The notes: generated by a model from the sequence alone, not told the origin. A stretch of 63,359 nt of DNA, filler included, from Licmophora abbreviata (GCA_900291995.1; 23 parts of 23 records of this genome joined end to end with filler, not necessarily neighbours in it); one strand, 5' to 3'. Shown: positions 17,610 through 53,217, counted from the whole stretch's first letter. A program made the numbers and translations.

Positions 17610-19023
17610 ATGACACGGCACGAAATCATCACGGGTCACGTGTTGTCCTTCACCGAAGACCCGTTCGGCAACGCCCCCGACGCCTCGGTCACATGGCACG
17701 AGGCGCTGCTGATCCGCGACGGAACCATCATTGCCACGGGCGATCTGGACACGCTGCGCCAACAGGCTCCCGGCGCAACGCTGACCCGCCATGACGGCTG
17801 CCTGATCTGCCCCGGCTTCATCGACGCGCATGTGCATTACCCCCAGACCGCGATCATCGCCAGCTGGGNNNNNNNNNNNNNNNNNNNNNNNNNNNNNNNN
17901 NNNNNNNNNNNNTTAATTAATTAANNNNNNNNNNNNNNNNNNNNNNNNNNNNNNNNNNNNNNNNNNNNACCCCCAGACCGCGATCATCGCCAGCTGGGGG
18001 GCACGGCTCATCGACTGGCTCGAACGCTACACCTTCCCCGAAGAGATGCGCTTTGCCGATCCCGCCCATGCCGCCACCATCGCCGACCGCTATCTCGACC
18101 TAACGCTCGCCCATGGCACCACCACCGTCTCCAGCTTCTGCACCTCGCACACCGCCAGCGTCGAGGCGTTCTTCACCGCAGCCCAGGCGCGCGGCTTGCG
18201 GGCGGCGGCGGGCAAGACCTGCATGGACCGCAACGCGCCGCCCGCCCTGTGCGACACCGCGCAATCCGCCCATGACGACAGCGCCGCGCTGATCGCCCGC
18301 TGGCATGGGGTCGACCGGCTGTGCTACGTCATCACCCCTCGCTTCGCCCCCACCTCAAGCGCTGATCAGCTGGCCGCGCTCGGGGCGCTCTGGGCCAATC
18401 ACCCCAACTGCCTGATGCAAACCCATCTGAGCGAACAGACCGAGGAAATCGCCTGGGTGGCCGAGCTTTTCCCCAAGGCCCGCGATTATCTCGATGTCTA
18501 TGAGACATTCGGCCTTCTGGGCGACCGCGCGCTTTTCGGCCATGCCATCCACCTCACCGCGCGTGAGGCCTCTCGCCTTTCGGAAAGCGGCGCCGCACTG
18601 ATCCATTGCCCCACCTCCAACAGCTTCATCGGCTCGGGGCTTTTCGATATCGGGCGCCGTCTGGCCGAAGGGCAGCGCATCGGACTGGCCACCGATACCG
18701 GCGGCGGCTCGAGCTTCTCGATGCTGCGCACGATGGCCGCCGCCTATGAGATCGGACAATTGACCGGCACCGTGCTGCATCCCGCGCAGCTTTTGTGGCT
18801 GGCCACCGCAGGCTCCGCCCGGGCGCTGCATATGGGCGACAGGATCGGCACGATCGCCCCGGGGATGGAGGCCGATCTGGTGGTGCTCGATCTCGCCTCC
18901 ACGCCCGCCATCGCCACGCGTCACGCGCGCGCAGACGACATCTGGGACGCGATCTTTCCCACGATCATGATGGGGGACGACAGAGCTGTAAAAGCCGTTT
19001 ATGTGATGGGACATCGCCTGTAA
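17610..19023 (+). CDS. guaD: Guanine deaminase; 3' end supplied by the integrated element
   Basis: PGFIDAHVHYPQ, LIDWLERYTFPEE, ITPRFAPTS, QTHLSE, TDTGGG, MMGDDR motifs; the gap is an overlap (17839-17868 repeated at 17969-17998). Confidence 0.92.
18961..18974 (+). repeat. attL core
   Basis: ACGATCATGATGGG, encodes TIMM(G) in guaD; contains the palindrome ATCATGAT. Confidence 0.88.
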
Positions 19024-19036
19024 CGACTATAACCAT

Positions 19037-19309: not shown

Positions 19310-19513
19310 ATGAGCAAAGCTGTGCAAATGCGCCGATGCATCTGCGGCGATGCATGCCGCGATCCCAAAGGTCCCATGCTGCCGATCGAAGCGTTCGCGG
19401 CGTCAGGAGGGCGCTGCGAGACCTGCTACCGCAAACGCCGCCGCAAGAAAAAATCGACGCGGGAAGAACGGCTTGCTAGGCTAGGTCACTTTTTAGCGGG
19501 GCTGCAGCAATGA
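19310..19513 (+). CDS. Small Cys-rich, basic protein (possible zinc finger)
   Basis: GAGGAGA RBS; CICGDAC...CETC then RKRRRKKK; ATGA overlap with next ORF. Confidence 0.55.
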   Translation: MSKAVQMRRCICGDACRDPKGPMLPIEAFAASGGRCETCYRKRRRKKKSTREERLARLGHFLAGLQQ

Positions 19514-19749
19514 CCCGGAACGTGGATCGTCCTGACCCGTGGGAGTTCGGACCTTGGGATGCCGTTGAACATTTCATGGCGGGGTCCGAGGACATCGTTA
19601 TGGCCGACGACATGACCATCGACGATGCAGCGGATCTGCTAGTGCAGTGCGGCGAGATCGAAGGCGCCTATGACATCCGCGTGTTCTACCATGAATGCCG
19701 CCTCGCGCTCACCAATAAGATCGAGGAGATGATCGATGCAACGTCGTGA
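19510..19749 (+). CDS. Small acidic hypothetical protein
   Basis: Overlaps upstream and downstream ORFs in a compact operon. Confidence 0.55.
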   Translation: MTRNVDRPDPWEFGPWDAVEHFMAGSEDIVMADDMTIDDAADLLVQCGEIEGAYDIRVFYHECRLALTNKIEEMIDATS

Positions 19750-20149
19750 TTTCCTGGTCGGCGCAAGCGCGCTCGCCTTGGCGCCTACCCCTCTTCTGGG
19801 CACTAAGCGCGTAGAGGCGCTTGGTTGCGTGCCCCCTGCGCCCCTCAAGTCGAGGCTTTCAATCCCCACAACCGGGGGCGTTTCCCTGCAACGGTTTATG
19901 GTGGAATACCAAGCGTTGAAGGAGCGCGCTGCAACTGCCAGACGGCACGAGGCCGCCTACCGCAGCCGCATCCCTTACGACGACACATCCCCCGCGTCGC
20001 TCGAGACCAACCCCGATTACAACTCGCCGTCCGCTCCACCACCTCGGCCGCCGGCACCGACCCTCTATGGTCCTGGCACCGAGACCAATGATCCGTTCGA
20101 GTTCTGGCACATGCGCCGCGACAACATAAAGAAACAGAACCATGGCTGA
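19736..20149 (+). CDS. Hypothetical protein with twin-arginine-like N-terminus
   Basis: GAGGAG RBS; MQRRDFLVGASALALAP; overlaps the integrase start. Confidence 0.5.
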   Translation: MQRRDFLVGASALALAPTPLLGTKRVEALGCVPPAPLKSRLSIPTTGGVSLQRFMVEYQALKERAATARRHEAAYRSRIPYDDTSPASLETNPDYNSPSAPPPRPPAPTLYGPGTETNDPFEFWHMRRDNIKKQNHG

Positions 20150-21587
20150 TCAACGTAATTTCACCAAAGCATACCTGCTCGGCCTGTCCAAGAAGGAGCC
20201 TGGGTTCCTTGCCAAGGACACTGGGTTTAACGGTACCCTCGGGGCGCGCGTCGCCAAGGCCCGCCAAGTGTCGCTATTCGTGGGCTGGCGTCAGGGCAGC
20301 AAGCAGCGCAAGAAGGTCCTCGGTACCGTGAAGGACCTGCTCGAGCTGGACGGCCTGACAGTCGACGATGTGCGTGAGCGCGCACGCGCGGTCATTCGCA
20401 TGTCAAAGGAAGGCCCCCAAGACGATGGTGCCCGGGCAAGGATTACAATCGCTGTTCTGGGCAAGGAGTACGTCGAAGGGCGCATGTCGGGCACGATCAA
20501 AACGCCGTATGCGGACGGTGGTAGAGCCGCGCGCCTGGCTATCAAGAGGGCGGTCGCGGTGTGGGGCGATCGGCCTGTGGCATCGCTGAGGANNNNNNNN
20601 NNNNNNNNNNNNNNNNNNNNNNNNNNNNNNNNNNNNTTAATTAATTAANNNNNNNNNNNNNNNNNNNNNNNNNNNNNNNNNNNNNNNNNNNNGCCTGTGG
20701 CATCGCTGAGGATGAAGGACGGCAGCGCGCTGTTGAACCAGGTTGTCAAGGACGCCGTCGCAACAGCCAAGCGCGAGAAGCGCAGGCTGGGCGCGAAGTA
20801 TCCAGGCCACGAGGCTGCCAAGAGCGCCCGCGCCCTGATCAAGCCCATGCTTGTCTGGCTGGCCGACGAGCTACCAGAGGTTCGCACTGAGCTGTTCAAG
20901 CAGTTCACTGCGAGGTCGAACGGCCCTCATCGCGGCGTGATGAGCAAGGACGAGCGCATTCTTTTCTTCCGCGCCCTCAACATCTTCGAGAAGCCGCAGA
21001 GCAACCGCACAGGCCGCCGTCACGACGTCAGCAAGGACACCTGCGACATCCTTCGCCTAACCTATCTCTGCGCCGCTCGAAAGTCAGACTGGGTGCAGGC
21101 TCAGTGGCGGGATGTATCGCTCGACGACGGGACCTGGGTGCGCCCCGACCACAAGCGCAAGCAGGGTGAAGAACACCGGCAGATTTTGACGCAGGACGTG
21201 ATCGCAATCCTTGAGGGGGTCAGGAGCCGGCGCGAGCAAAAGTACAAGCGCCCCGTCGAGGGTGAAGACTATATTTTTCCGTCGGTCAGCAAGACTGGAA
21301 AGCCGCACCGCTCAGACCTCTGGAGCGCCTTCCAAACGATCATGGACATCGCGGGGATCAATGAGGACAAGGCCGAGGCACAGCGGATCACGCCACACTG
21401 CCTGCGCGCCTCTAGGATCACCGAATGGGTCGATGAGCACGGCTGGAGCTTTGAGAAAGTTGGGCTGGTGATGGGCAACACGGAGCAGGTGGTGAGAGAC
21501 GTCTACTACCGCCCGCGGCACAAAGTGGAGGCCGTACGCGAAACGGTCGAAGTCGCCGGCGACGCAGCGCTGCTGCAGGGACTGTGA
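20142..21587 (+). CDS. Tyrosine recombinase/integrase with N-terminal arm-binding domain
   Basis: N-term DTG..LGARV..SLFVGWRQGSKQRKKVLG resembles P4-type arm-binding domain; catalytic R (CAARKSD), HCLR, Y (VYY); the two parts overlap across the gap (GCCTGTGGCATCGCTGAGGA duplicated). Confidence 0.85.
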
Positions 21588-21782
21588 ACGCATAGGCGAT
21601 CACACGGGCACGCGCGAAGATCGACGTCGTGGCTGCCCGGCCCCACAGAACCAATGTACTGATCCGGGTCAAGCACTCAGCTTTCCGGCGAGTTGACCAG
21701 GCGCGTTTTCGACGCTGTCATTGGAGCAAGGTTCGGGTTATTCCAATGTAAAACCGAAGAAACGAATGAACGGGGATGCAGC

Positions 21783-24318
21783 ATGGCCATCAAAAAAAGC
21801 GATATCTACCGGTCCCTCTGGGAAAGCTGCGACCAGCTCCGGGGCGGCATGGATGCCTCGCTTTATAAAGATTACATCCTCACTCTCTTGTTCGTGAAAT
21901 ACGTGTCCGACCGAGCCGGTCAGCCTGATGCGCTGATCGAGGTGCCGCGCGGGGCGTCGTTCGATGACATGAAGGCCCTGCGTGGGTCCAAGGATATCGG
22001 CGAGGGGATAGATACGATCATCGCCCGCATCGCAGAGGAAAATGACCTCAGCGGCGTGATCGACCGGGCATTCTTCAACGACGCCGAGAAATTCGGGCGC
22101 GGCACCAAAATGATCAACACCCTCACAGCGTTGATCAACATCTTCAGCCGGGAAGAGCTGAACTTTTCCAAGAACCGGGCCGATGGCGACGATATTCTGG
22201 GCGATGCTTATGAATACCTGATGCGGAACTTCGCGACAGAGTCGGGCAAGTCCAAGGGCCAGTTCTACACGCCTGCCGAGGTCTCCCGGATCGTGGCAAC
22301 CGTGGCGGGGGTCAGCCGGGCCACCAGCCCCCAGCAATCCGTCTATGACCCGACATGCGGCTCGGGTTCGCTTCTTCTAAAAGCCGCCGAAACCGCCCAT
22401 GTACCGATCACCATCTTCGGGCAGGAGATGGACATTGCCACCCGTGGCCTCGCCCGCATGAACATGATCATGCACAACCGGGCCACCGCCGAAATCGCCC
22501 AGGGCGACGTGATCGCAGAGCCGCATTTTCTGGCCAATGCCACCACGCTTCAGACCTTCGATTTCGTCGTCGCAAACCCGCCTTTCTCGGCCAAGGCCTG
22601 GGCCTCGGGTCTGACCGAAGACACCAAGTTCGACCGCTTCACAGATGGCGAACCCCCGGCCAAAAACGGGGATTTCGCTTTTTTGCTGCATATCCTTGCC
22701 TCGATGAAGGCCACCGGATCCGGTGCGGTCATCCTGCCCCATGGCGTGTTGTTTCGGGGCAATGCCGAGGCCCGCTTGCGTGAGAAGATCCTGAAACGGG
22801 GCTACATCAAGGGCATCATCGGCCTGCCTGCCAACCTGTTCTATGGCACGGGCATCCCGGCCTCCATCATCGTGCTGGATAAATCGCAGGCGCAGGAAAA
22901 CCGCCCTGTGTTCATGATCGACGCCTCCAAGGGCTTCATCAAGGACGGCAACAAGAACCGCCTGCGGGAACGCGATATTCACAAGATCACCGATGCCTTC
23001 ACCAAGGCGCAGGAAATCCCCGGCTATTCCCGCCTTGTCCCCTTTGCCGAAATCACCCGCAACGACTTCAACCTGAATATCCCCCGTTACATCGACGGGT
23101 CCGCCCCCGAAGACCTGCAAGACATTACCGCCCATCTGCATGGCGGCGTGCCAGAGCGTGACATCGATGCCTTGGCCGAATTCTGGGATGTCATGCCCAC
23201 CCTGCGGGCCACGCTATTCGGCCCCAATCCCCGTTCGGGCTATGCCGATCCGCTGGTTGCCCCCGATCAGGTGCGCAGCACCATCCGAAACCATCCCGAT
23301 TTCGNNNNNNNNNNNNNNNNNNNNNNNNNNNNNNNNNNNNNNNNNNNNTTAATTAATTAANNNNNNNNNNNNNNNNNNNNNNNNNNNNNNNNNNNNNNNN
23401 NNNNCGGCCTACCGCAGCCAGATCACCGATATCCTGAACGGCTGGATTGCCCAGAACACGCCCCATCTGACCGGCATCACCCAAGGCGATCATCCCAAGG
23501 CCCTGATCGACACCATTGCCGAGGATATGCTGACCCGCTTCGCCACCGCCCCCTTGGTCGATAAATACGAGGCCTATCAGCGCCTGATGTCCTATTGGTC
23601 AACCACCATGCAGGATGATGTCTTCATCATCGCGGGCGGGGGCTGGTTGGCTGCCCGTGATCTGCGAGAGGCCCGCAAGGAAGTGGCGGACGGCAAAACC
23701 AAATGGTTGGAAGAGGGCGATCTGACGGTTGGCAAAACCCGCCTTGTCGCCGATGTCATCCCGCCCGCCCTGATCACGGCGCGGTTCTTCCCGGAATTGA
23801 AGGATGCCCTGGAGACCGCCACCGCACGGGCCGAAGAACTGGGCCGCGAGATCGAGGAACTGGCTGAGGAACACGGGGCCGAGGGCGGGCTGTTGGCCGA
23901 TGCCCTGACCGATACCGGCAAACTGACCGCCGCATCGGTGAAAACCCGCGAGAAATCGGGCGAGGCGGATGCCGAGGAATACCCCCTGCTGAAACAGGCC
24001 GCGAAACTGATCGCGGCAGAGGCGGCGGCGAAAAAGGCGGCGAAAGAGGCCGAGGCAGAACTGACCGCCGCCGTGTTCAAGGCATACCCGGAACTGACCG
24101 AGGGCGACATCCGCACCCTTGTGGTGCAGGATAAATGGATCACCGACATCACAGCGGCGATCGGGGCCGAGGTAGAGGCGCGCACCGAAAGCCTGACCGC
24201 CCGCGTGCGGGTGCTGACTGAACGCTATGGCCAGACCCTGCCGCAGATCATGGACGATCTGGCGGGGCTAGAGGCGCGGGTGGCCACGCATCTGGCGGCG
24301 ATGGGGGTGGCGGGATGA
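21783..24318 (+). CDS. hsdM: Type I restriction-modification methyltransferase subunit (gap inside)
   Basis: GQFYTP, YDPTCGSGSLL, NPPF, LPHGVLFRG motifs. Confidence 0.93.
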
Positions 24319-25007
24319 ATCTGCCTTCAAGCTGGTCACACCAGCGATTGGATAGCATTGCGAGTCTTTCGCGTGGAAAATTCAGCGCAAGGCCAAGAAA
24401 TGATCCACGTTTTTTCGGTGGCGATATTCCCTTTGTTCAGACGGGAGATGTTCGCAACGCTCATGTTTATTTGCGAGATTTTACGCAGACCCTGAACTGG
24501 GAAGGCCTCAAGGTTAGCCGAGTCTTTCCAAAAGGAACGATGTTATTCACCATTGCGGCGAATATTGGCGATCTAGCTTTTCTCTCATTTGACGCGGCTT
24601 GTCCTGATAGTTTGGTGGCAATCGAACCAAAACAAGGCACCGACGCAGTTTGGTTGTTCTATCAGCTTGGGGCATTCAAGGCTGACTTTGAGGCCGCGGC
24701 AACGCAGAACGCACAACTGAATATCAATCTTGAGAAACTCAACCCCTTCAAAATCCCTGCCCCCCCCCTCCATGAACAACATGCCATTGCCTCCGCTTTA
24801 TCGGATGCGGATGGGGTGGTGGCGGGGTTGGAGCGGGTGATCGCGAAGAAGCGCCTGATCAAACAGGGGGCGATGCAAGACCTCCTCACCGCCCGCCGCC
24901 GCCTCCCGGGCTTCTCGGGGGAGTGGGAAGACATTCCCCTTGGTATAATTGGCCCATTCGTCGGGGGCGGAACCCCTAGCATGGCGCGGCCAGATTATTG
25001 GAAAGAT
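24315..25007 (+). CDS. hsdS: Type I RM specificity subunit, partial
   Basis: GDIPFVQTGD TRD, PPLHEQHAIASALSD..KQGAMQDLLT conserved helix, start of second TRD GGGTPS. Confidence 0.9.
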
Positions 25008-25087
25008 NNNNNNNNNNNNNNNNNNNNNNNNNNNNNNNNNNNNNNNNNNNNTTAATTAATTAANNNNNNNNNNNNNNNNNNNNNNNN

Positions 25088-27086
25088 NNNNNNNNNNNNN
25101 NNNNNNNGTCGTCCCTGGTGCATAAAATTCGGCCGCCGCGAAGAGGATGAGATGGGCGCCATGATCGCCGAGATCCAACGCGGCCAGATCGGTGCGCCGG
25201 TGGGCGAGTTTTTCGTGTTCATCGACGAGGCGCATAGGACGCAATCAGGCAAGCTCGCCCGTGCGATGCGGATGATTCTGCCGAATGCGGTGTTCTTCGG
25301 GTTTACAGGAACGCCCTTGTTGAAAACGGATAAACAAACCTCGCTTGAGACGTTCGGGCCATATATCGGCAAGCCCTACCGTTTCAACGAGGCGGTCGAG
25401 GATGAGGTGGTGCTGGATTTGCGCTATGAGGCACGGGATATCGACCAGCGCATCAGCTCACCCACCAAGATTGACGAATGGTTCGAGGCCAAGACCAAAG
25501 GGCTGACCCCTGTGGCCAAGGCAACCCTGAAACAACGCTGGGGCACCTTGCAGCGGGTGTTGTCGTCCAAGGATCGGCTGGAGCAGATCGCCAATGACAT
25601 CATCATGGACATGGCGACAAAGCCGCGTCTGGCGTCCGGTCGCGGCAACGCGATGCTGGTGGCGGGGTCTATCCCCGAGGCCTGCCGGTTTTTCGAGATC
25701 TTCCGCAATTCCGGGTCTGAGCTGTCTGGCAAGTGCGCCATCGTCACGTCCTACCAGCGCAATGCGTCCGAGTTGACTGGCGAAGAGGCCGGGATGGGCG
25801 AGACGGAAAAACAATATGTCTACCGCGTTTATGACCGGTTGATGACTGATCTGGGCACGGATGAAGAGGCTTACGAGGCCGAGGCCCTGCGCAAATTCCG
25901 CAAGGAACCGGCGCAGATGAAACTGCTGATCGTGGTCAGCCGCTTGCTGACCGGCTTTGATGCCCCCACGGCCACATACATCTACATCGACAAACAGATG
26001 CGGGATCACGGGCTGTTCCAGGCGATCTGTAGGGTCAACCGTTTGGACGGGGAGGACAAGGATTACGGCTATGTCGTGGATTACAAGGACCTCTTCAAGA
26101 ATATCGAGGCGGCAGTGGATGATTACACCTCCGAAGCGTTCGATGCCTTTGACGCCGAGGATGTCGAGGGGCTGATCTCGAACCGTGCCGAAAAGGCCGG
26201 GGTTGACCTATTCACCGCACGAGATGCCTGGTTCGGTCTGCTGGATCCTGTGGAGCAGCCCAAAGGGGACGACCAGATCTTCGCCTATTTCTCCAGCCCC
26301 CATGGTTGGGAGAAAGATCCGGAGGCCGAGGAAAAAGCCCGGCGGCGTCAGGCGCTTTATAAATTGGCGGGCGCCTATGCCCGAGCCTTTGCGTCGGTGG
26401 CCGAAGACCCTGCGGCCAGTGGCGTGAATGACCTGCAGCTTGCCCAATACCGCGGTGAGGTCGAGAGGGCCCTTTCCATCAGGGATGCCGTGCGGTTGCA
26501 CAGTGGTGACGCCGTGGACATGAAACAGTTCGAACCTGCCATGCGCCATCTGATCGACAGCTATATCAAGGCGGACGGGTCCGAGGTGATTTCGCATCTC
26601 GACGACATCAGCCTGATTGACCTTGTGGCCAGCAAGGGGGCCTCAGTCGAGGATGGGCTACCCAATGGTTTGAAGGGCAATCGGGAGAATGTAGCCGAGG
26701 CAATCGAGAACAATGTCCGCAGGTTGATCATTGATGAAACTCCGGTGAACCCGAAATTTTATGAGCGGATATCCGAGTTGTTGACGGACCTCGTCAAAAA
26801 ACGGAAAGAGGACGCGCTCGCCTATGCCGAGTATCTCGAAAAGATCGCGGAGTTGGTCAGGGCTGCAAAGGCAGGCCACGGAGGTGACTATCCGGCAACC
26901 ATGACCACACCTGGACGGAAGGCATTGTACGATAACCTCGGTCAGAATGAAGCGCGGGCACAGTCAGTGGACCAGGCGATCCGTGAAACCGCCCAGACGG
27001 GCTGGCGTGGAAACAAGATGAAGGAGCGGATGATCCGGCGAAAGCTGTCGGACCTGTTTGAAGACGAGGACGCCGTCGATCAGATC
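25088..27086 (+). CDS. hsdR: Type I RM restriction subunit, partial
   Basis: DEAHR, GFTGTP, LLTGFDAP, QAICRVNR helicase motifs. Confidence 0.92.
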
Positions 27087-27186
27087 NNNNNNNNNNNNNN
27101 NNNNNNNNNNNNNNNNNNNNNNNNNNNNNNTTAATTAATTAANNNNNNNNNNNNNNNNNNNNNNNNNNNNNNNNNNNNNNNNNNNN

Positions 27187-27661
27187 CCAACAAGCCCAGG
27201 TCCGAGCAGGAAAGATAAGTCTTGAAGGCACAGACCGGATCACCATGACCGTCCCGCGCGACGCCACCCGATCCGAAAAAGCGCGTTGGATGTCCGCGTG
27301 GTATAGAGCAGAACTCCGAGACAGAGCGGCGCCCAGGGTGTCGAAATGGGCCGATCGGTTAAAAGTCGAAGAACCCAGATGGGGCATTCGTGCGATGAAC
27401 ACGAAATGGGGATCCTGTAACCCGGACACCGGGCGGCTCTGGGTTAACCTTGATCTGGTCAAGAAACCCTTGGTCTGCCTTGATTACGTGATCCTTCACG
27501 AGATGAGCCATTTCGTGTCACGTCGGCATGACGACGTTTTCTTGGCAGTGCTTGATCGACACATGCCGGGCTGGCGGCAAGTGCGCGCGGATTTGAACAA
27601 GCTCCCCCTTACTGCGCCAGTTGGTTCGAAACTGACCCGTGACAAAAATTCGGATATCTAG
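27187..27661 (+). CDS. M48/YgjP (DUF45) family metallopeptidase, partial
   Basis: MNTKWGSC and DYVILHEMSH (HExxH); position directly after hsdR. Confidence 0.85.
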
Positions 27662-27993
27662 GACTTACTCAATAGGACCGGGTGATCTTTTCAGTCGGAG
27701 GTGCTGGTCCTGATGGAAATATCCATCGCGAGCTGCGCGCAGCGAGTAAAACCTATCCTGTATATCCTTATCCTTCCTTGGGTCAGTCATAGTTAACGCC
27801 AAAATCGTGTCAGGTATCAATCGAGGGTCATCTTTTGGCAATGGTCGTTTTTTTTGCGCGGTGAGTAGCTTACTCGCTCGCCGGTGACCGGATCAGCCCT
27901 CGAGACGTGATCCCCTATCTCGCGGTCTTATACTGATGGGGACGTGTCTTGGGCGAGTGAACTAAGCGCTTCGCGGCGAAGCGGATATTTTCT

Positions 27994-28749
27994 TCACCAT
28001 GACGGCACCCTCCTCGGCGCGTGGTCGTAATTGTCAGACGTGTCATGGTACGGATCAAACGCTTGGTACCTTATGTCGTGGGCGTCAAACTCCTCTGGCT
28101 GGGTATCGCCACGGGCGATGCCGGTACGGCGGCTGGAGGTGTATGTGCTGCCGTCAGCGGCGCGCTGGATGCGGGCGTCCTCGTCGGCCCGGCTCTGCTC
28201 GGCCTTGTTGCGCAGGGCGCCGTCGTGCAGGCCCGGTGTGGCGACACTTGCGGCGAATGTCAGCGCGAGCGCGTCGAGGCTGTCGGTGCTGTGGCCCAGG
28301 CGTTTCTTGATGTCGGCCTTGGCCTCAATCTGGAGCTTGTTGGACGCGTTGAGCTTGAACGTCGGCGCGGTCAGCTCCTTCTGCAACTTGGTGTCGCCCT
28401 TCTGATCGGGCAAGCTGGCGTTGGGTTTCTCGCTCCAGCTTCTAACCGCGTCGAACATCTCAGCCCGGCGGTTGCTGAACCGCTCCGCGTCGATGGCCGC
28501 GCCGCCAAAATTGACACCGATCGGGTTGAGGCCGAGCTGGACCATCACGTCGATGACGCTGATGCCCATGCTACCGGCGTCCACAAACACCGCGTCGACC
28601 TGCCTCTCTCTGGCGATGTTCAGGGCGGTGATGGCGATCTGCTGGGTCGTGGCCTCGCGCAGCTCCACGAAATCGAGGACGATCGGACCTTGGCGGAGGC
28701 ACATGACCGTGGCGTCGTTGAGGCGCCCGATGTCGATACCCATGACGAG
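27994..28749 (-). CDS. Phage terminase large subunit, C-terminal nuclease domain (5' part in gap)
   Basis: GIDIG..D, VFVDAGSMG, VNFGG, NRRAEMF, IEAKADIKKRLGHSTDSLDALALTFA resemble the RNase H-fold TerL C-terminus. Confidence 0.75.
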   Translation of the reverse strand, partial: LVMGIDIGRLNDATVMCLRQGPIVLDFVELREATTQQIAITALNIARERQVDAVFVDAGSMGISVIDVMVQLGLNPIGVNFGGAAIDAERFSNRRAEMFDAVRSWSEKPNASLPDQKGDTKLQKELTAPTFKLNASNKLQIEAKADIKKRLGHSTDSLDALALTFAASVATPGLHDGALRNKAEQSRADEDARIQRAADGSTYTSSRRTGIARGDTQPEEFDAHDIRYQAFDPYHDTSDNYDHAPRRVPSW

Positions 28750-28849
28750 NNNNNNNNNNNNNNNNNNNNNNNNNNNNNNNNNNNNNNNNNNNNTTAATTA
28801 ATTAANNNNNNNNNNNNNNNNNNNNNNNNNNNNNNNNNNNNNNNNNNNN

Positions 28850-28957
28850 GGCGTCCTCCATACTGTGGCGCCACATGATCGTCTTGCGCTCGTGGTCGAG
28901 GGCGAAGGTCCAGCGGATCAGCTCGGGGTCGATGAGGGTGTTGGCGTGCGTAATCAT
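28850..28957 (-). CDS. Start of an ORF running into a gap, possibly a phage HNH endonuclease N-terminus
   Basis: ATG overlaps the upstream TGA; MITHANTLIDPELIRWTFALDHERKTIMWRHSMED. Confidence 0.35.
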
Positions 28958-29190
28958 GCTGACGTCTTCCCTTCGATGATATTGGTCCAGCGCGTTTTTG
29001 AACGGAGATGCATAACCGCTCGAACGGACAGTCCAGTCTCCTCTGCGATCTGCCGCATCACCCCGGGTGCCAGGCGCTCGACGACCTTTTGGGGGGCTTC
29101 GTCGATGAGTTGGAGCGCGTGCCGCACCTGCGCTTCGCTGTACTTGGCGTTGTGGTGGTCTTCCCCGCGTGCATAGGCATGGTCGGGCAT
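28954..29190 (-). CDS. Small HTH protein resembling the DNA-binding tail of phage HNH endonucleases
   Basis: AGGAG RBS; RGEDHHNAKYSEAQVR...RQIAEETGLSVRAV...RW. Confidence 0.6.
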   Translation of the reverse strand: MPDHAYARGEDHHNAKYSEAQVRHALQLIDEAPQKVVERLAPGVMRQIAEETGLSVRAVMHLRSKTRWTNIIEGKTSA

Positions 29191-29446
29191 GGTCGTCTCC
29201 TTTGTCTTATGCCAGCGATATTACCCGTTATGTGGGGTGCAAAACAGGACAAGCATCATCCAAAGCGACGATAGAGGTCTTAATTCATATAATGATTACA
29301 AATGATTACTAATCACAACTCCAATATGGCAACGATCTCGCATCACGGCGCGGGATTTTGCCCCTTTCTGGCCCTTGCTGCAATCTCGAGGGGCGCTTTA
29401 CTCGTCGTCGCCTGATCGGCGTGGTAGGCCGGCAGCGAGAATGGCC

Positions 29447-29728
29447 TCACTCATCGCTGCTGGCGAGGATCGCGGCGGCGATCTCGCGGTCGGCCTCGTC
29501 GTGGACGTAGTCGGCGGCGGTGGCGGCGTCGGGGAAGAGATCGGGCAGGCGCTCGAGCACTATCGCGACCTTGGCCTCGAGGCCGGTGCCAGAGACCGGC
29601 AGAGGACCGCCAGCGTGGGCGAGGGCGAGCATCCATCCGAGGCGGCGGTTGTGGATCACATCTGTGCAGCGGCGCTCAGCGCGGCTGGGCGCAACATAGC
29701 CGGTGGGGGCTCGCATGACGCCGCTCAT
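29447..29728 (-). CDS. Hypothetical protein
   Basis: Co-oriented with neighbouring element genes; no recognisable motif. Confidence 0.35.
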   Translation of the reverse strand: MSGVMRAPTGYVAPSRAERRCTDVIHNRRLGWMLALAHAGGPLPVSGTGLEAKVAIVLERLPDLFPDAATAADYVHDEADREIAAAILASSDE

Positions 29729-29755
29729 GGCCGCGGACGGGGCCGTGGGACGGGG

Positions 29756-30082
29756 CGTAGCCGGGGGTAGACGTAGCCGACCCTCCTCAACCTTTTTATG
29801 TACACCCCCTTAAAACGTATAATAGATAAGCATTCCTTACCTATTATTATTACTAATAACTCTCTTTTATACTCTTGGAAAAGGTAGGCTACCCGGCTTC
29901 CAGCCACGCCCCTGCCTGTAACCCACTGAAAAGAAGGCCACCGTGACCCAGCCCGGGGCGGCCGGCGTAGCCGCCCCCACCGCCCCTTGCCTCGGTACCT
30001 TCCGAGAGCTTCACGTTTGATACCCTTCCCGACACCCGTCAGCCCTCCTCTCCATCGGCGTTTTCACCCCCGGGCGTAGCCG
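29756..30082. other. Candidate replication origin: AT-rich core flanked by CGTAGCCG iterons
   Basis: CGTAGCCG at 29756, 29772, 29966, 30075; inverted partial copy GGCTACC at 29887; strongly AT-rich 29790-29885; immediately downstream of the primase-helicase. Confidence 0.65.
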
Positions 30083-30190
30083 CACCTCTGNNNNNNNNNN
30101 NNNNNNNNNNNNNNNNNNNNNNNNNNNNNNNNNNTTAATTAATTAANNNNNNNNNNNNNNNNNNNNNNNNNNNNNNNNNNNNNNNNNNNN

Positions 30191-33089
30191 CTACCTTGTG
30201 GATCGCCGACACATTGCTGCCTTCAGGGGCATAGGTCATCGCCTCGGCCCGCTCGTCCTGCGACATCTCGAGGAACCGTTCTGCAGCTTCTTGGCTGCGC
30301 GCCAGCACCCTCATCGGGATGCGCCCCACCTTGAGCTTGTCGCCGCCATCGCGGCCATAGACCCTCACCCAGCCGTTGAACCCGCCACCGCCGCTCGTCT
30401 GTGCCTTCAGCTCGCCACGGATCGCCGACAGCACGTCACGTCCGGCCTCGTCGACCTTCGCCAGCCTCTTCGCCTCGCGCTCCACGTCGCCCGGTTTCAC
30501 GAACTCGCAGCCGCGCTCCTGGTACATCGCGAAGGCGTCCTCGAGATATTCATCCGAGGGCTTCATCGAGGCAGAGGCCATCTTGCGCTTGGTCAACGTC
30601 TTGGGCGCGTTCATGAACAGCTCCCAGCGCGGCGCATGCCCCAGCCTCTGCGGCACCACCTCCTTGAAGTAGTGGACTACGCTGGCGGCCGCGTCAGGTG
30701 TCACCCCGCCATCCCCAGTCCTCACCGCGAGGATGCGGTCGCGCAGCTCCCTGTTGGCCTCGTCATTCAGAGACCCCTTGCGGCCCTGCGCGTAGATCGC
30801 GAAACGCCGGTTCGCTGTTCTCATATCCAGCGGCAGCGCCCCGAGATGGTTCGTCGCGATGATCGTCGAGGCGTAGACGAAATCTGTCCTCGGCGTGCCG
30901 TATTTCACGTTGACCGTGACAAGGGCCTTCTGGACCTCGAACCGAGCCTTCATGTCTTCCCACGCGGCGCGGGGCATCCCTTTGATCTCTGGGACGAACA
31001 GCATCAGCTTGTCGAGCAGCCAGTCGTCATACTGAGCCTGACCCCCGGTGCCGAGCTTGTTCTCCTTGACCGTCGACATGTTCCCCCGGCCCATCGCCGA
31101 GCCGAGGAACGCCTCGACCCATGTGTTCCTGCCGACGCCTTCGATCCCATCCGCGACGAAGACCTGAACGGCGCCCCGCGCGTCGGGGTGCAGGAATTTA
31201 TAGGCCTGCCATTCGAGGTAGAGATCGCGCTCTTTGGGATCGTCGAACATGAAGGTCAGGAAGTCATCGATCAGGTCGACGTGCTCCTGCCGCCACTGCC
31301 CCAGCTTCGGCGCGGTGTAGGTGTTCTCGACGAGGTGGCCGTCCTCATTGCGGGCGATCCGGAAGGACGACCACGGCACGTACCGCATTCCCTCGATCTG
31401 GACCCTGAGCGGGCTGTCCGCGAAAATCAGCGACACGGGCTTCCACTCGGTCCCTCTGGCGGGATCGTCCGGTCTGACCCAGCACTCTGCCAGCTCTTCG
31501 CTGACCGTGCCGAACACGCCGTGCGCCAGCTGCTTGGACTTGCCCGGTATCAAGCACTGCCACCGCTCCGACGACTTGCCGCCGGGATAGAAGGCGTACA
31601 TGTACCGCAGCGCGAGCAGCCTTGCCCGGGCCTCGACCTGATAGCCTTCCTCGCCCTCATTGTCTGCGAAGGCGCGCGTCGCGCGGCGATAGTCATGCAT
31701 CACTTGCGCCATGTCTTCGTCCTCGATCGCGCCTCGCACCTTCAGCTCGTGCAGCATCTCCGCGGCGCGCTCGATGACGGCATCCTCGTTATGCATGGGC
31801 AGCTTCTCGTTCGGCGACGGCTCGATGCCGGCAGACAGCTGCGATAGGCGCTCCGCAAGCCGCTTGGCCCTGACCTCGATCATCTTGGGGTTGGCCTCGG
31901 GCGGATAGTGGATCACGCCCGTGCCGCTGTCGCAGATGCCCAGCACGCCGTCGTGGCGCTCTGTCACGAAGCCGCGTGGAGGGTTCGATCCGTCGACCGA
32001 GGGGTCAATCCCGAGCACCTCAGCCATGCGGATCGGCATGCCCTTCTCGAGCTGGTCGTAGGTCACCTCCCAGATGTTGTCCCTGCTGGTGCCGGTGAAG
32101 AAGGTCACGCCGGTGTCGAGGGTGTATTCCCTCACCCCGCCACCGCCGCTGCCGTCCTCTGCGAAGACCGCCCTCACCCAGCCGTTGTTCTCGAGCAGGT
32201 CGCCATGCGCCAGCACAAACTCGCGGAACGCCTTGTAGCTGACCTTGGGCACCTCTTCCCGGGTGACCGCCACCGGCGAATGGTCGTCCAGCCACTCGTA
32301 CTCGATCCCGTTGGGGTGTGCGTCGTTCTCACCAGGCAGCGTGTGCCAGCCGAGCACGCCGATCTGGCAGCCGCGACCACCGCCCCCGGCCCTGAAGAAC
32401 TCCACGCGGTGCCCCTTCTTGAAGGCCTTGATCCAGCCGTCGGGCATCTTGATGCCGTTCTTGGTGAGACCCTCCGGCAGCTGCGTGCCCGGCTCATAGA
32501 ACAGCGGCCCCGCGAACTTGCCTGGCGCGTCAAGCAGAACGTCACCGCGGGTCGGCTCGTCGACGCGGAACAGCCACGTCTCCTTGAAGCTGCCCTCGCG
32601 CTGCCGGATCAGGACGTTGTCCTCCCACTCTTGGCCAAACAGCCGGCAGGCCAGATCGAACAGGCGCTTGACCGCATCCTTGTTGTCGACGTCCACATCG
32701 ATTGCGATCAGGTCGCCCTCGATCAGCAGGCCGGTACTGGGGTTATCTCGGCTCACCCACTCCCCCGTCTGTTCGTCCTGAAACTTTGGAGGGTTGTCCC
32801 AGTAAGCCGCATCGGCAGGGCTGTGTAGGTCACGCTTCAGCGCGCGTTCCTGCCAGCTGCGGCCGAGGGGTCGCTTGCCCCTGTTCGGGGTCCAGCGAAA
32901 GCCGTTGACCTGCATCCTCAGGCGCAGCGGCGTCTGTGGATTACTCGACGCGGCCCCCGCCTCTGCCAGCTGCTTCTCGGTGGTCTTGCTCATGCCCTTC
33001 GGGGCTTTGTTCTGCTCGGTTTTCATGGCAATGTTCATCCTATGCTTGGTGTTTGTCGCTCTCGGCGACATCGGATCGGGGCGCCTCAC
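30191..33089 (-). CDS. Bifunctional primase-polymerase fused to a C-terminal helicase-like (DUF5906/NrS-1-type) domain
   Basis: GLLIEGDLIAIDVDVD Prim-Pol motif; C-terminal GIEGVGRN, QYDDWL, VNVKYG, IATNH..ALPL..RRF; 3' end in gap, start uncertain. Confidence 0.75.
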
Positions 33090-33193
33090 AGGGGGCGCCC
33101 TTTTCTTTCAGCCGCGGCCGCCTCGTTGTGTGCGTTCTGGTCAAAGGCCGCGAAGCCTGCGCCAATGGCCTTCAGGTCGTCATCGAAACGCAT
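33086..33193 (-). CDS. 35-aa peptide coupled between the AlpA-like gene and the primase
   Basis: TGATG overlap upstream and GTGA overlap downstream; MRFDDDLKAIGAGFAAFDQNAHNEAAAAERKGRPL. Confidence 0.4.
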   Translation of the reverse strand: MRFDDDLKAIGAGFAAFDQNAHNEAAAAERKGRPL

Positions 33194-33816
33194 CACGCGA
33201 TCTCCTTCTGTCTTTCGAATTGGTTTTTGACCCAGGTGAGAATCGTCTTGGGGCTGGGCCAGCACGATCCCGCTGGGCCAGTGTCCCTCAGCGCCCTAAG
33301 CTCAGCGTCGCGCTGCAGAGCCTGCTGCAGCCCAGGCGGCGTCTTGTCTAACAGCGCTGCGGCCGCCGGCCCCGACATCGGCGCGCCGAACCAGACGCGG
33401 TCGAAGGATTCGCAGTAGTCGATCAACTGCATCTGACTGACATGACGAAAGGGATAGTGACGGGCGAAGGCCAACAGCTCCTGCTTCTTCCGCAACACCC
33501 GCATTTTGGGGTAGCCAGCGTCGATTTGGTCTGCCACCCAGCGCAGGACCTCGTGCCGGCTGACATAGTAGCGACCGACCTCCCCGATGCGAACATAACC
33601 GGGTGGCGCGGAACCTCTGGCGCGCGCCGAATTCAGCGCCGGCGGCTTCATCTCGAAAAGACTGGCGATTTTGTCGTTTTTCACCGGTGCGAGGAGATGC
33701 AGAGGGTCTCTCCGTGCCATGTCCTCGATTTTCTGAGTGAGTATCTCGATACTCTCAGGGTTGTCGTGGAAACCCAGCGCACCAATGTACAGCAGCGGAT
33801 CGCATGCAAACTTCAT
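33193..33816 (-). CDS. AlpA/excisionase-like winged-HTH protein with C-terminal extension
   Basis: KIASLFEMKPPALNSARARGSAPPGYVRIG..RYY.SRHEVLRWV pattern; first gene of the replication operon. Confidence 0.55.
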   Translation of the reverse strand: MKFACDPLLYIGALGFHDNPESIEILTQKIEDMARRDPLHLLAPVKNDKIASLFEMKPPALNSARARGSAPPGYVRIGEVGRYYVSRHEVLRWVADQIDAGYPKMRVLRKKQELLAFARHYPFRHVSQMQLIDYCESFDRVWFGAPMSGPAAAALLDKTPPGLQQALQRDAELRALRDTGPAGSCWPSPKTILTWVKNQFERQKEIA

Positions 33817-34609: not shown

Positions 34610-35779
34610 TCACACCTCAAGTTTCGGACGAACCGCTCTTTCGGCGCCACAGCTTTGCCTGATGGAGATATATGGCGTCAGCCGTTCTTGCATGGGGGGG
34701 TGTTCGGGCTGCGCCAAACGTCGCCGGAGGATTTTGACAGCTGTTTGTCCGATAACGTCGGCATTATTCGTGACTGTTGTTAGCGGTGGAAATGACACCT
34801 GAGCTTCATCAGTGTCATCTATTCCTACAACTGCAACGTCTTTGCCGACCTCAAGGCCGAGATCCGCCAGGGCGCTCATTGCGCCGAATGCCACAAGATC
34901 GTTAAAACAGGCGATGGCCGTTGGCTTTGTGTCACCCGAGGCCCAAAGATGCTTGATGGCAGTATGTGCATCAAGCCTTTTTGACGGCCCGTCGATCCAA
35001 CTTTCGCGATTAGCGTTAAGTCCCGCCTCGCTCATNNNNNNNNNNNNNNNNNNNNNNNNNNNNNNNNNNNNNNNNNNNNTTAATTAATTAANNNNNNNNN
35101 NNNNNNNNNNNNNNNNNNNNNNNNNNNNNNNNNNNTTAAGTCCCGCCTCGCTCATTGCGGTGAGAAAACCTTCATAGCGTCCGTCAGCTGTCGTTGTGCC
35201 CGGCTTGCCTCCCAGCATGATGATTTGCTTGTGGCCAAGGTCGATCAGGTGACTCGTTGCCAAACGCATGCATTCTGGATCGTCGTTGATTACAAAATCC
35301 AAGGATGTGTCAGGGATCGAGCGCACAATGAGAACAACAGCCCCTCCCGCCTGTTTGAAAGCTTCAAGATCGCTTTCTTGAGTGCCAAGAGCTGGAGATA
35401 GGATAAGACCGTCGGCTCCATGTTCAATAAGGGAGGCCACAAAGCGCGCTTGTTTTCCTAGATCGTCATCATGACTGTTTACGAAAATAGCTTCGCCGTC
35501 ATCTGACAGTCTTGCCTCGGTCGCGGTCAGCATTTCAGCAAAAAATGGGTGCACAATGTCATGAAACCCGACGCCTATGATTCGGGTTCTGCCGGTGCGC
35601 AACGCAGTGGCGGCGCGGTTTTGGATGTATCCAACCTCGCTCACGTAGTCGCGGATTCGTTGTTTTGTGCTGGCCTGAATAAGCGGGCTATTGCGTAGTG
35701 CAAGCGATACTGTAGCAACGGACACGCCAAGCGTTTCAGCGATCGCTTTTTGCGTCAGGGCTTTGTTTTTTCTTGTCAT
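34610..35779 (-). CDS. LacI family transcriptional regulator
   Basis: TQKAIAETLGVSVATVSLAL HTH, NDLVAFG, GIDD, PPLTTV; the gap is an overlap. Confidence 0.92.
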
Positions 35780-35861
35780 GTTGGGGCTGTGGTGCCGTGG
35801 CTTAATCTGTCTGAGCGTCCATGAGGATCGCACAAAACCATGGGTCTGACCACTGTCATTT

Positions 35862-35907
35862 TTCAATCGATAAAACTGCGGTTTAATCGATTAAAAAATT
35901 ATTGACA
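35862..35907 (+). promoter_or_regulatory. Two LacI-type operators and a -35 box upstream of the TRAP operon
   Basis: Perfect palindrome TTTAATCGATTAAA (35882-35895), variant TTCAATCGATAAAA (35862-35875), TTGACA (35902-35907). Confidence 0.7.
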
Positions 35908-35996
35908 CAGGTCGCGCACAGTACCAAACATGCGGTCCAGATGCTCGGGAGGAGCCACTGACATTTCCGGGCGTATCTTGTTCAAGGGAGGACGTT

Positions 35997-36977: not shown

Positions 36978-36989
36978 TAAGATCGTGCT

Positions 36990-37013
36990 GGCCGCGACTC
37001 TAGGGTCGCGGCC
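36990..37013 (+). terminator. Hairpin after dctP (mRNA stabiliser or partial terminator)
   Basis: GGCCGCGAC-TCTAGG-GTCGCGGCC followed by a T-rich stretch. Confidence 0.5.
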
Positions 37014-37071
37014 CTGTCTCTTTCTCACGATTCCGCAAATCAAACGGCTGATCAGGCCGAAGGATAAAGTT

Positions 37072-37602: not shown

Positions 37603-37612
37603 GGAAAGTCCC

Positions 37613-38887: not shown

Positions 38888-38910
38888 TCGAACGAGATTG
38901 GACCGCAGAT

Positions 38911-39921: not shown

Positions 39922-39931
39922 GGAGAACGAC

Positions 39932-41815: not shown

Positions 41816-41931
41816 NNNNNNNNNNNNNNNNNNNNNNNNNNNNNNNNNNNNNNNNNNNNTTAATTAATTAANNNNNNNNNNNNNNNNNNNNNNNNNNNNN
41901 NNNNNNNNNNNNNNNAGACATGGAGTCCAAA

Positions 41932-43356: not shown

Positions 43357-43366
43357 GGAGGCGGAC

Positions 43367-44245: not shown

Positions 44246-44255
44246 GGGGAAGATC

Positions 44256-45692: not shown

Positions 45693-45695
45693 CCA

Positions 45696-47287: not shown

Positions 47288-47377
47288 CCCCCCTCTTTCC
47301 TCCGTGTTCGGCGTACCCATCATACAGCAATCCAACCTATACTGACGCCAGTTCCGAAGAGCGACCAGCTACGAATT

Positions 47378-53132: not shown

Positions 53133-53217
53133 GGCCAAGACCTATTTGATTTTGATTCGATACTACTGCTTGGATTTGAAGATTGTCAAAGTGGTTTCGA
53201 TTCACTACCAAATGCGC

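Follow-up and report, generated by a model that had tools for sequence, protein, structure and literature searches.

An integrative element from a Roseovarius-like marine bacterium with its own large terminase and no detected virion genes, a possible helper-dependent satellite

In a stretch of DNA of 63,359 nucleotides, filler included (hereafter the window), I find an island of a Roseovarius-like marine bacterium that carries an integrase, a replication module, a large terminase (TerL) and a type I restriction-modification (R-M) system, whereas structural genes were not found anywhere in the window with Pfam and PHROG scans. As the element has its own integration, replication, TerL and R-M genes but none for a virus shell, it probably travels in helper-phage capsids, and from its genes I tentatively read it as a satellite-like element that depends on a helper and uses its own terminase for packaging itself (probability about 0.45). 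This combination of genes without capsid genes is not among the satellite families that I found described.

A direct repeat of 21 nt flanks the insertion, with copies at 18961 and 56765 (2 matches vs 0 expected in a pattern search of the window). The left copy, attL (18961..18981, + strand), found by the pattern search and the empty-site alignment, lies in the 3' end of an amidohydrolase gene (17971-19023); the right copy (56765-56785) is followed by the displaced ancestral amidohydrolase 3' end (attR, 56765..56850, + strand). In the Roseovarius references L020, L022 and L039 the aligned target site is empty, and with a tyrosine integrase, a flanking target repeat and an empty site in relatives, the island is a site-specific integrative element. 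From the positions of the repeats, the insertion therefore spans about 41 kb (18961-56785; about 40.5-41.3 kb with gaps), and does not end at 33816 after ~15 kb, as an earlier note on this DNA had it. It consists of a mobile core of ~19 kb with the gaps added (~15.6 kb as assembled) and ~22-23 kb of metabolic cargo. This cargo (34610..56764, ~22 kb) lies inside the att-bounded insertion, has a GC content of 0.585 vs 0.64 in the flanks, and according to a Pfam scan of its 28 ORFs encodes LacI, TRAP DctPQM, 2-oxoacid dehydrogenase E1/E2/E3, aldehyde DH and SDR proteins, as well as an amidohydrolase, a hydrolase, MarR, and Mrp-like and NifU-like proteins. A third att copy, between core and cargo or at the AlpA end, was not found in the window.

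The window is made up of 23 assembly pieces joined by 22 linkers of 100 nt each (N44+TTAATTAATTAA+N44). Six of these linkers lie within 19310-33816, where only two gaps (~28750-28849 and ~30091-30190) had been noted before. Domain accounting across the cut genes puts the sequence missing from the core gaps at ~3.6-3.9 kb in total, which agrees with the 3.2-4.3 kb implied by a contig of 43,322 nt in run X1, assuming that this contig begins at a piece boundary. At these estimated sizes, the gaps leave no room for a head module. DNA of the element is present in three runs, as contigs only, and no RNA runs are listed among the runs that match it.

The decisive evidence comes from a gap-free relative of the element, found in the metagenome contig L102 and, at 99.5-99.8% nucleotide identity, in the Roseovarius-genus genome G439. 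In L102 the order is AlpA-like gene, two small ORFs, DUF5906 primase-helicase, iterons, small ORFs, TerL, type I R-M and integrase; common to the window and L102 are the integrase, TerL, the primase, the AlpA-like protein and two small proteins (93/153 aa and the 78/92-aa HTH protein). The element in G439 has the same amidohydrolase 3' end as its target, with an att repeat of its own (~33 nt) and an att-bounded insertion of ~41.4 kb. Its cargo is also metabolic but completely different from that in the window, IS fragments occur in the island, and no att copy was found at the AlpA end of the core in G439 or L102. The flanks of the L102 core are 94% identical to sequences that lie elsewhere in G439, vs 99.5% for the core itself, which points to recent mobility of this core. 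Judging from their shared genes, the window element and L102/G439 form a small conserved element family, and a rare one: it was found in 1 of 147 genomes of the genus, with one distant match in 401 genomes of the family, and no close relatives were found in IMG/VR with the primase or the TerLs as queries.

The ORF at 27994..28749 (- strand) encodes the C-terminal nuclease domain of TerL and a conserved C-terminal tail. Residues 249-415 of a 442-aa TerL with Terminase_3 and Terminase_6C domains are matched by the fragment (P0001) at 43% identity, and 324 phage records match the ORF. Its identification as a TerL nuclease is thereby upheld, but not its status as a whole ORF, as the linker at 28750 cuts the gene on the 5' side of the ORF and leaves its 3' half; ~258 residues, including the entire ATPase domain, lie outside the window sequence. 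As the assembly lacks this ATPase half, the intactness of the window TerL has to be judged from its relatives. In an alignment of the subfamily, the window fragment included, the C-terminal tail is conserved, and D6, D57 and D159, which I take to be the catalytic residues of the nuclease, are invariant. In TerL proteins, the C-terminal tail contacts the portal. The L102 TerL is full-length (478 aa) and matches Pfam Terminase_6N at 5e-11; its ATPase domain can be aligned with 4zni, a TerL ATPase of known structure, with GKT and VDE, presumably the Walker A and B motifs, at the aligned positions. From the conserved motifs and tail, TerL of these elements looks functional.

Element-type TerLs form a clade of seven tips (support 0.999), with the genomic context known for two of the seven, and this clade is sister to phage TerLs with T7-type portals, including that of a Roseovarius prophage contig. 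The nearest phage relatives have T7-type portals (PF12236/phrog_332) on records of 38-44 kb, distant ones sit in complete podovirus-type TerS-TerL-portal-capsid-tail modules, and a T7-type portal is located downstream at 29 of 101 TerL loci. By these sequence affinities, TerL is evidently phage-derived. Searches with Pfam and PHROGs revealed a TerS family neither in the window nor in L102. However, the small gene just upstream of the L102 TerL, without a family, is scored as virus-like by a language model (0.93), and its ORF overlaps the TerL start by a few bases, the classical position.

The earlier observation that no portal, capsid or tail gene follows terL is borne out in the window and likewise in the gap-free L102. 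The TerS, portal, scaffold, capsid and tail proteins of L001 gave no match in the window, the Pfam scan of the 28 cargo ORFs revealed no virion genes, and portal, capsid, head-tail adaptor and connector genes were found neither in the window nor in the L102 core or the G439 cargo. In the L102 core, no unassigned ORF exceeds 215 aa, and none is large enough for a portal or capsid protein. The genes expected of a complete prophage, for portal, major capsid, tail and lysis, were not found in the assembled sequence, which has an estimated 3.2-4.3 kb of gaps in the core.

The rightward int operon starts with a small Cys-rich ORF of ~56 aa (19310..19480, + strand), read from the sequence and without a match in a family search. 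Two listed ORFs of 79 aa and 137 aa (19510..20149, + strand) are located 5' of int; no Pfam, PHROG or PADLOC family matched them, and no similarity was detected to the 65-aa and 148-aa ORFs at the same place in G439. The tyrosine integrase (20142..21587, + strand; Pfam PF00589, phrog_1) is one open frame of 441 codons across the linker at 20593-20692, once this linker and an exact overlap of 20 nt between the two pieces of the gene are removed; it is 32-40% identical to the integrase of L102/G439. The AlpA-like, excisionase-type HTH protein of 207 aa (33193..33816, - strand) has a weak HTH_17 match (E 0.063) and 41% identity over 63 aa to its L102/G439 counterpart, which itself matches HTH_17 at 2e-6 and also phrog_66. 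The primase-helicase (30192..33089, - strand, the last few codons in a linker) combines a Prim-Pol-type N-terminus with a helicase that matches DUF5906 and the PDB entry 6k9e 'Primase', and is 41% identical over 923 aa to that of L102. Directly downstream of it lies a candidate replication origin with GC-rich repeats and an AT-rich palindrome (29730..30090), which separates the primase from the small genes; in the L102 equivalent an 11-mer occurs six times vs 0.37 expected. These small genes include one for a 93-aa protein (29447..29728, - strand), the counterpart of a 153-aa ORF in L102/G439 (37-38% identity, E 1e-12 to 7e-17, tblastn), and one for a 78-aa HTH protein (28954..29190, - strand) with weak HTH matches and 30% identity (E 4e-8, pairwise BLASTP) to the 92-aa protein of L102. 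The integrase, AlpA-like protein, Prim-Pol/helicase, origin repeats and HTH protein of the earlier note are thus all present, AlpA by its weak match together with its likeness to L102/G439. The possible HNH gene of that note was not confirmed.

The region from 21.7 to 27.7 kb, which had been left unnamed, contains a type I R-M system, taking up about half of the "core" as first noted, and a YgjP-like gene. The methyltransferase gene hsdM (21693..24318, + strand; PADLOC, TIGR00497) is interrupted by the linker at 23305-23404, which costs it ~2 residues: the PADLOC profile PDLC03027 is matched at positions 1-506 before the linker and at 509-808 after it. It is followed by the linker-cut first half of hsdS (24315..25007, + strand; PF01420, PADLOC Specificity_I) and by hsdR (25110..27086, + strand; PADLOC PDLC03044, TIGR00348, Pfam), which is cut by linkers at both ends and covers profile positions 354-1020 of 1034. 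All three genes of a type I system are therefore matched by Pfam, NCBIfam and PADLOC, and the gaps in hsdS and hsdR fall only at linkers. The YgjP-like metallopeptidase gene (27188..27661, + strand; PF01863, profile positions 83-206 of 207), linker-cut at its 5' end, shares one uninterrupted piece (27187-28749) with the 3' end of TerL. A convergent M48 peptidase had been proposed here; the convergent metallopeptidase is there, but its M48 label has to be replaced by YgjP-like. The R-M systems of the window and L102 occupy the same position, though they belong to unrelated type I subfamilies and have opposite orientations.

How does the element compare with known satellites? It shares an integrase and a large primase-helicase with P4-like satellites, which have a defence hotspot. 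However, the P4 genes psu, sid, delta and alpha were not found among the scanned ORFs of the window and L102 (Pfam, PHROG), its primase-helicase is of the DUF5906 type, and P4 is not known to have a terminase gene.

Like PICIs, the element combines an integrase, an AlpA-type regulator, a primase-replicase by an origin and genes for accessory or defence functions, and is devoid of structural and lysis genes; the integrase, regulator (alpA/merR/stl) and primase-replicase of the PICI model are all found (PMC10085698). However, in the description of the SatelliteFinder model, PICIs redirect packaging by small terminase or capsid-morphogenesis genes, without TerL (de Sousa et al. 2023, PMC10085698), while here TerL is present, and Pfam and PHROG scans detected neither a TerS nor a capsid-morphogenesis family. 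The core of ~19 kb and the insertion of ~41 kb also differ from the median PICI size of 9.5 kb given there, as does the target, the 3' end of a protein-coding gene, from those of PICIs as described. With cfPICIs the element shares its own TerL plus integrase, regulator and primase, but the same description defines these also by capsid, head-tail adaptor and connector genes (PMC10085698), which are absent in the window and L102/G439. The proposal that an own TerL without head genes fits neither PICI, cfPICI nor P4 thus gains backing from the contiguous L102/G439 relative.

Marine VEIMEs resemble the element in being integrative, with tyrosine integrase, AlpA and primase/helicase, without a major capsid gene and in some cases with R-M (PMC9618062). 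They are proposed to fill helper capsids of normal size (Eppley et al. 2022, PMC9618062), encode homologues of the small terminase and presumably rely on the helper for the large one; TerL has 0 occurrences in the main text of that paper. Furthermore, VEIMEs are defined by DNA found in virus particles, as concatemers, whereas packaging of the element described here is a prediction from its genes. In marine bacteria, cargo-carrying tycheposons likewise join small integration and replication modules to niche-adaptive metabolic genes over many kb, but in the account of Hackl et al. (bioRxiv 10.1101/2020.12.28.424599) those equipped for packaging carry terS or a capsid gene and lack cargo, and TerL, present here, is not mentioned for them.

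If the element is indeed a helper-dependent satellite, the integrase and AlpA-like protein would excise it at the att repeats, and the Prim-Pol/DUF5906 helicase would replicate it from the iteron region beside its own gene. Its TerL, perhaps together with the small upstream virus-like protein, would then cut the replicated DNA and pump it into helper procapsids, the helper most likely being a podovirus-type phage with a T7-type portal. The type I R-M system in the slot between TerL and int may defend both host and element.

Alternatively, the element could be a decayed podovirus-like prophage, in which head and tail genes were lost and replaced by R-M and other DNA, with TerL as a leftover. 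The complete modules of distant TerL relatives, the T7-type portals downstream of TerL at the loci counted above, the unrelated convergent gene that TerL abuts and the IS fragments in the G439 island agree with this. However, the capsid-less order is common to two elements at only 41% protein identity, the L102 genes are open and full-length, and a 99.5% identical copy recurs against another genomic background. Conservation extends to the motifs and tail of TerL, the TerLs of these elements group in a separate clade with good support, no complete prophage is present at the nearest element-type locus, and the distant TerLs in podovirus modules belong to the sister clade; I therefore regard decay as quite improbable. 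A self-replicating integrative defence or cargo island, transferred by another route and with a TerL that does not serve self-packaging, is rather unlikely, though less so than decay. TerL might then be a decoy terminase or nuclease against invading phages, or might process the element's own replication products. Its place next to the defence slot would suit such a role, as would the lack of a detected TerS family, of IMG/VR relatives in searches with primase or TerLs, and of an att copy at the AlpA end of the core. This reading does not account well for the conservation of ATPase motor (in L102), nuclease and tail alike, or for the classical position of TerL after a small gene overlapping its start. 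The gene transfer agent heads suggested in the earlier note find no support and are hardly credible as carriers. Rhodobacteraceae commonly carry GTAs, but GTA heads hold a few kb, far less than the ~19-kb core or the ~41-kb island, and the nearest phage TerLs pair with T7-type portals on records of 38-44 kb.

A further alternative bears on the unit of mobility and not on the nature of the core: either all 41 kb form a single unit, or only the ~19-kb core is mobile now and the adjoining 22-23 kb on the right are remains of older islands at the same att, accreted in an integration hotspot. Such accretion is doubtful but deserves attention, as the cargo differs completely between the window and G439, and as the 99.5% identical cores of L102 and G439 have different neighbours past a sharp breakpoint. 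However, a truncated gene, IS110-like as I take it from the translated flank, is found exactly at the G439 core junction, so rearrangement can explain the differing neighbours. In addition, a third att copy is missing both from the core-cargo boundary of the window and from the core end in G439/L102, and both att-bounded insertions measure ~41 kb.

Returning to the satellite reading, the packaged unit could be the whole ~41-kb island, a phage-genome-sized cargo satellite whose own TerL fills the headful of a podovirus-type helper. I consider this extension unlikely, though it is supported by the near-equal sizes of the G439 insertion (~41.4 kb), the window insertion (~40.5-41.3 kb) and many phage records with related TerLs (38-44 kb). 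If it is true, metabolic operons of 22-23 kb would be interchangeable cargo on a 19-kb core of int, R-M, terminase and primase, and transporters, catabolic operons and a restriction system would be moved in this way between bacteria of the Roseobacter group.

The window of 63,359 nt is a pseudomolecule and not a single stretch of DNA; it consists of 23 pieces of 1.06-6.7 kb, and its 44 runs of 44 N form 22 identical linkers, N44-TTAATTAATTAA-N44. Six of these linkers (20593, 23305, 25008, 27087, 28750 and 30091) lie inside the finding, for which an earlier note, made from the sequence alone, had counted two gaps. At three of the 22 junctions the pieces overlap exactly (17868/17969 by 30 nt, 20592/20693 by 20 nt and 35035/35136 by 20 nt), and these could simply be merged. 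From 6.7 to 19.0 kb the window is collinear, linkers included, with Roseovarius reference loci and with the Roseovarius genome G439. Furthermore, hsdM spans a linker while matching one PADLOC model at positions 1-506 and then 509-808, and the genes for the E3 component and LacI likewise run on across linkers at consecutive profile positions. Because of these overlaps, the collinearity and the continuing genes the order of the pieces can be trusted, and claims on synteny within the window must allow for the linkers. The Roseovarius reference locus L022 lacks, in its collinear part, an equivalent of a 353-aa open reading frame region of the window at 14240-15301, which suggests a small indel, specific to the strain, in the flank of the core.

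A 21-nt sequence is observed twice in the window, at 18961 and at 56765, with 0 matches expected by chance. The left copy lies within the 3' end of an amidohydrolase gene, the product of which is 83-84% identical to its Roseovarius homologues, and behind the right copy comes a stretch that resembles the ancestral 3' end of this gene more closely. Next to it are the genes for a CAP-domain protein and an inositol monophosphatase, the immediate downstream neighbours of the amidohydrolase in reference genomes. The two repeat copies, the displaced gene end and these two genes therefore define an insertion spanning 18.98-56.77 kb (36,543 assembled nt), instead of the 19310..33816 that the earlier note had assigned to its proposed phage satellite. 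GC content is 0.599 in the core and 0.585 in the cargo, versus 0.64 in the flanks. The right-hand 22 kb contains LacI, a TRAP transporter, a 2-oxoacid dehydrogenase complex and other metabolic genes, and no virion gene was present among the 28 open reading frames scanned there. Between core and cargo I found no att copy by a pattern with up to 3 mismatches, by k-mer matching or by short-word BLAST, and the window holds no tRNA or tmRNA. Within the cargo, at 40914-44242, an open reading frame with an E2 lipoyl domain enters the linker at 41816, and on the next piece an aldehyde dehydrogenase comes first and an E2 catalytic domain after it, which means that the cargo has two E2 genes or that some sequence is lacking at this place. 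An accessory gene for a 449-aa NifU/Nfu_N/DUF6522 fusion protein (54896-56242) adjoins attR. It has a close homologue in two of the five Roseovarius genomes searched, G439 (74%) and G001 (53%), and a separate copy, 32-33% identical, occurs in all five.

In the core, three small open reading frames separate the amidohydrolase gene from a tyrosine integrase, which is one 441-codon frame across a linker. To its right lie the type I restriction-modification genes hsdM, hsdS and hsdR (Pfam, NCBIfam and PADLOC), and after hsdR a metallopeptidase gene convergent on the large terminase gene (TerL); this convergent peptidase, called M48 in the earlier note, is YgjP-like. On the strand opposite to the integrase operon are found the 3' half of TerL, identified by homology searches, and the genes for a 78-aa HTH protein, a 93-aa protein, a DUF5906 primase-helicase of 970+ aa and an AlpA-like protein of 207 aa, with a repeat-rich stretch between the 93-aa gene and the primase-helicase. 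A 14-mer is not enriched over the whole window at up to 3 mismatches (16 found vs. 16.5 expected), and at up to 2 mismatches three of its four matches fall within 29770-30086, which is a weak signal. The start of a 36-aa open reading frame at 28850-28957, the 'possible HNH' of the earlier note, shows no detectable likeness to a 109-aa open reading frame of the related metagenome contig L102 or to TerL N-termini. Some 800 nt around 34000-34600, between the AlpA-like gene and LacI, contain no convincing gene and several inverted repeats, and just past this stretch (35-36 kb) GC falls to 0.46; it could be a promoter or regulatory region, or the end of the core.

The TerL fragment P0001 (27994-28749, minus strand) matched no Pfam, PHROG or NCBIfam model. 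Despite this, the earlier call of TerL is sound, as the fragment shares 43% identity with a 442-aa TerL, over residues 249-415 of the latter, that has Terminase_3 and Terminase_6C domains, and matches 324 phage records and, at E<=1e-3, 5,021 proteins of a representative library. The best matches are about 500 aa long and their alignment begins at about residue 259; the window therefore has only the nuclease half and the tail, and the ATPase half is absent from all of it. No linker separates the 3' end of TerL from the YgjP gene convergent on it, both being on one piece, and hence the lack of a portal gene after terL, also pointed out in the earlier note, is a real observation.

A scan of metagenomes gave a relative without gaps, L102, in which an AlpA-like gene (HTH_17 at 2e-6; phrog_66), two small open reading frames, a primase-helicase, an 11-mer cluster, small open reading frames, TerL, a type I restriction-modification system and an integrase follow each other in continuous sequence. 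Its DUF5906 primase-helicase is 41% identical to that of the window over 923 aa. The window and L102 further share the integrase (32-40%), TerL (41%), a 93/153-aa protein (37-38%), the AlpA-like protein (41% over 63 aa) and a 78/92-aa HTH protein (30%, E 4e-8). The 11-mer is present in six copies in a cluster of 350 nt, versus 0.37 expected. A 126-aa 'open reading frame' just past the primase gene of L102 (7222-7602) is full of direct and inverted copies of this 11-mer, and is more likely a replication origin than a gene. TerL is full-length in L102 (478 aa), and all unassigned open reading frames of its core are at most 215 aa, too short for a portal or capsid gene. The small terminase (TerS) candidate of L102 belongs to no PHROG or Pfam family; its Atlas model is poor (pLDDT 0.54), and its viral neighbours are at the features level only. 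Since the restriction-modification systems of the window and L102 belong to different PADLOC subfamilies and have opposite orientations, the interval between TerL and int marks a cargo slot.

The earlier note itself had named portal or capsid genes in the gaps as grounds for refuting its reading. By domain accounting, the gap at 23305 is estimated at about 0 kb, the one at 25008 at about 1.7 kb (for the second half of hsdS and 353 hsdR profile positions), the one at 27087 at about 0.35 kb and the one at 28750 at about 1.5 kb (258 aa of TerL and the genes upstream, by analogy with L102), with little missing at 30091; for the core this makes about 3.6-3.9 kb. Independently of this, sequencing run X1, which may be the source of the window DNA, has one contig of 43,322 nt in which 30191-35035 corresponds to positions 15853-20697 with 0 differences, and which appears to cover the whole island. 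Runs X4-X6 have identical low-depth fragments on 30191-35035, and no joints or informative loose ends were seen in the run contigs on this stretch; no RNA run was among those listed for this DNA. With its end placed at the piece boundary 57851, the X1 contig would leave 429 nt for all right-hand gaps, and with its start placed at 17969 or 16813 it would leave 4,250 or about 3,220 nt for those of the core. From these coordinates of the possible source run I infer that the gaps hold no space for a head module. By both estimates, 3.6-3.9 kb and approximately 3,220-4,250 nt, the gaps would be too small for such a module.

Among 147 Roseovarius-genus genomes searched, one, G439, carries the L102 element, at 99.5-99.8% nucleotide identity and over two contigs. 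It is inserted in the same amidohydrolase 3' end as the element of the window and has its own att repeat, which measures about 33 nt; 23 kb past the AlpA end come the ancestral end of the gene, the CAP gene and the inositol-monophosphatase gene. These 23 kb consist of metabolic genes and transposase fragments unrelated to the cargo of the window, with 0 virion genes among 23 open reading frames. The insertion would be about 41.4 kb in G439, as calculated from coordinates, and about 40.5-41.3 kb in the window with its gaps. L102 and G439 diverge sharply about 360 nt beyond AlpA, and the far flank of L102 has its match, at 94% identity, on another G439 contig; the core is therefore more alike than the chromosomes that carry it. 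Exactly at the AlpA-side core boundary of G439 (locus L184, G439:C8, 9833-9960) lies a truncated gene end, which I take to be that of an IS110-type transposase, and a partial Mutator-family transposase adjoins attR (locus L190, 12206-13084). These remnants at the core boundary and beside attR suggest that the cargo arm of the G439 island was reshuffled by insertion sequences. As to the unit of mobility, the att repeats bound about 41 kb, whereas the sharp breakpoint between L102 and G439 suggests the 19-kb core.

In an alignment with 4zni, a TerL ATPase of solved structure, the ATPase domain of the L102 TerL has GKT and VDE at the corresponding positions, and three aspartates and the C-terminal tail are kept across the subfamily, the window fragment included. 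In a FastTree phylogeny of 94 TerLs (100 open reading frames were extracted and 12 of <380 aa left out), those of the window and L102 and the related P0006-P0010 form one clade (support 0.999), nested in a group of 15 tips (0.998) the other members of which mostly have a T7-type portal downstream. As the clade sits inside this group, TerL was taken from podovirus-type phages and has diversified since inside these elements. Within the 15-tip group, a contig of the Roseovarius-genus genome G497 (L196, G497:C404, 1-9039) carries a podovirus-type module of TerS, TerL, portal, protease/scaffold, capsid and tail-tube genes; with a portal of the T7 type (phrog_332) and its TerL in the sister group of the element TerLs, it is a candidate helper type. 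Further members of the element family are represented by the primases P0004 (Roseovarius pacificus), P0157 (Maritimibacter fusiformis), P0005, P0156 and P0158, and by the TerLs P0006-P0008 and P0010. Scans of IMG/VR with P0001, P0006 and P0007 gave distant TerLs only, at most 43% identical. No relative of the window primase was found in IMG/VR, in GTDB representative genomes (peptide-pattern scans), in 5 Roseovarius reference genomes or among 72,556 plasmid records, and phage records match it over the helicase part only, at 24-34% identity.

These gene sets are read most economically as a satellite-like element that would depend on a helper and combine four functions. Excision would be provided by Int and the AlpA-like protein, replication by the Prim-Pol/helicase with its adjacent iterons, and packaging into borrowed procapsids by the element's own terminase, with the defence slot as the fourth function. 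The observation of the earlier note is hereby confirmed in part, and its interpretation partly supported. By the published definitions, as far as these are set out in the passages cited here, the element departs from every known family in a defining feature. PICIs are described with int, a regulator, a primase, capsid-morphogenesis genes and TerS and without the TerL that the element has, and cfPICIs with TerL together with capsid and connector genes, whereas the element has TerL without capsid genes (PMC10085698). VEIMEs resemble it in the absence of capsid genes, but are described with TerS and as presumed users of the TerL of a helper (PMC9618062), while the element has its own. PICI-like tycheposons have a terS or capsid gene (bioRxiv 10.1101/2020.12.28.424599), neither of which is recognisable in the element, and PICMIs are given as having no terS (PMC10803314). 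A full-text literature search returned no account of an integrase/primase/TerL element without capsid genes; the supplementary tables on VEIMEs and of SatelliteFinder, in which such cases could be listed, were outside this search.

Known satellites either borrow the motor of their helper (PICI, P4, PLE, PICMI and VEIME) or supply both motor and capsid themselves (cfPICI). With a motor only, an element would represent a third strategy, in which the shell is taken and the enzyme choosing its content is replaced. The family offers a testable pair, the TerL tail of the satellite and the portal of the helper, and a clean natural experiment, as one core, 99.5% identical, is found against two different backgrounds. 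Even on the rival readings, the locus remains a neat case of a defence slot kept at a fixed place in a mobile core. Members of the Roseobacter group are ecologically important marine heterotrophs and, if the satellite-like reading is true, the element would be a concrete vehicle for defence systems and large metabolic operons among these bacteria.
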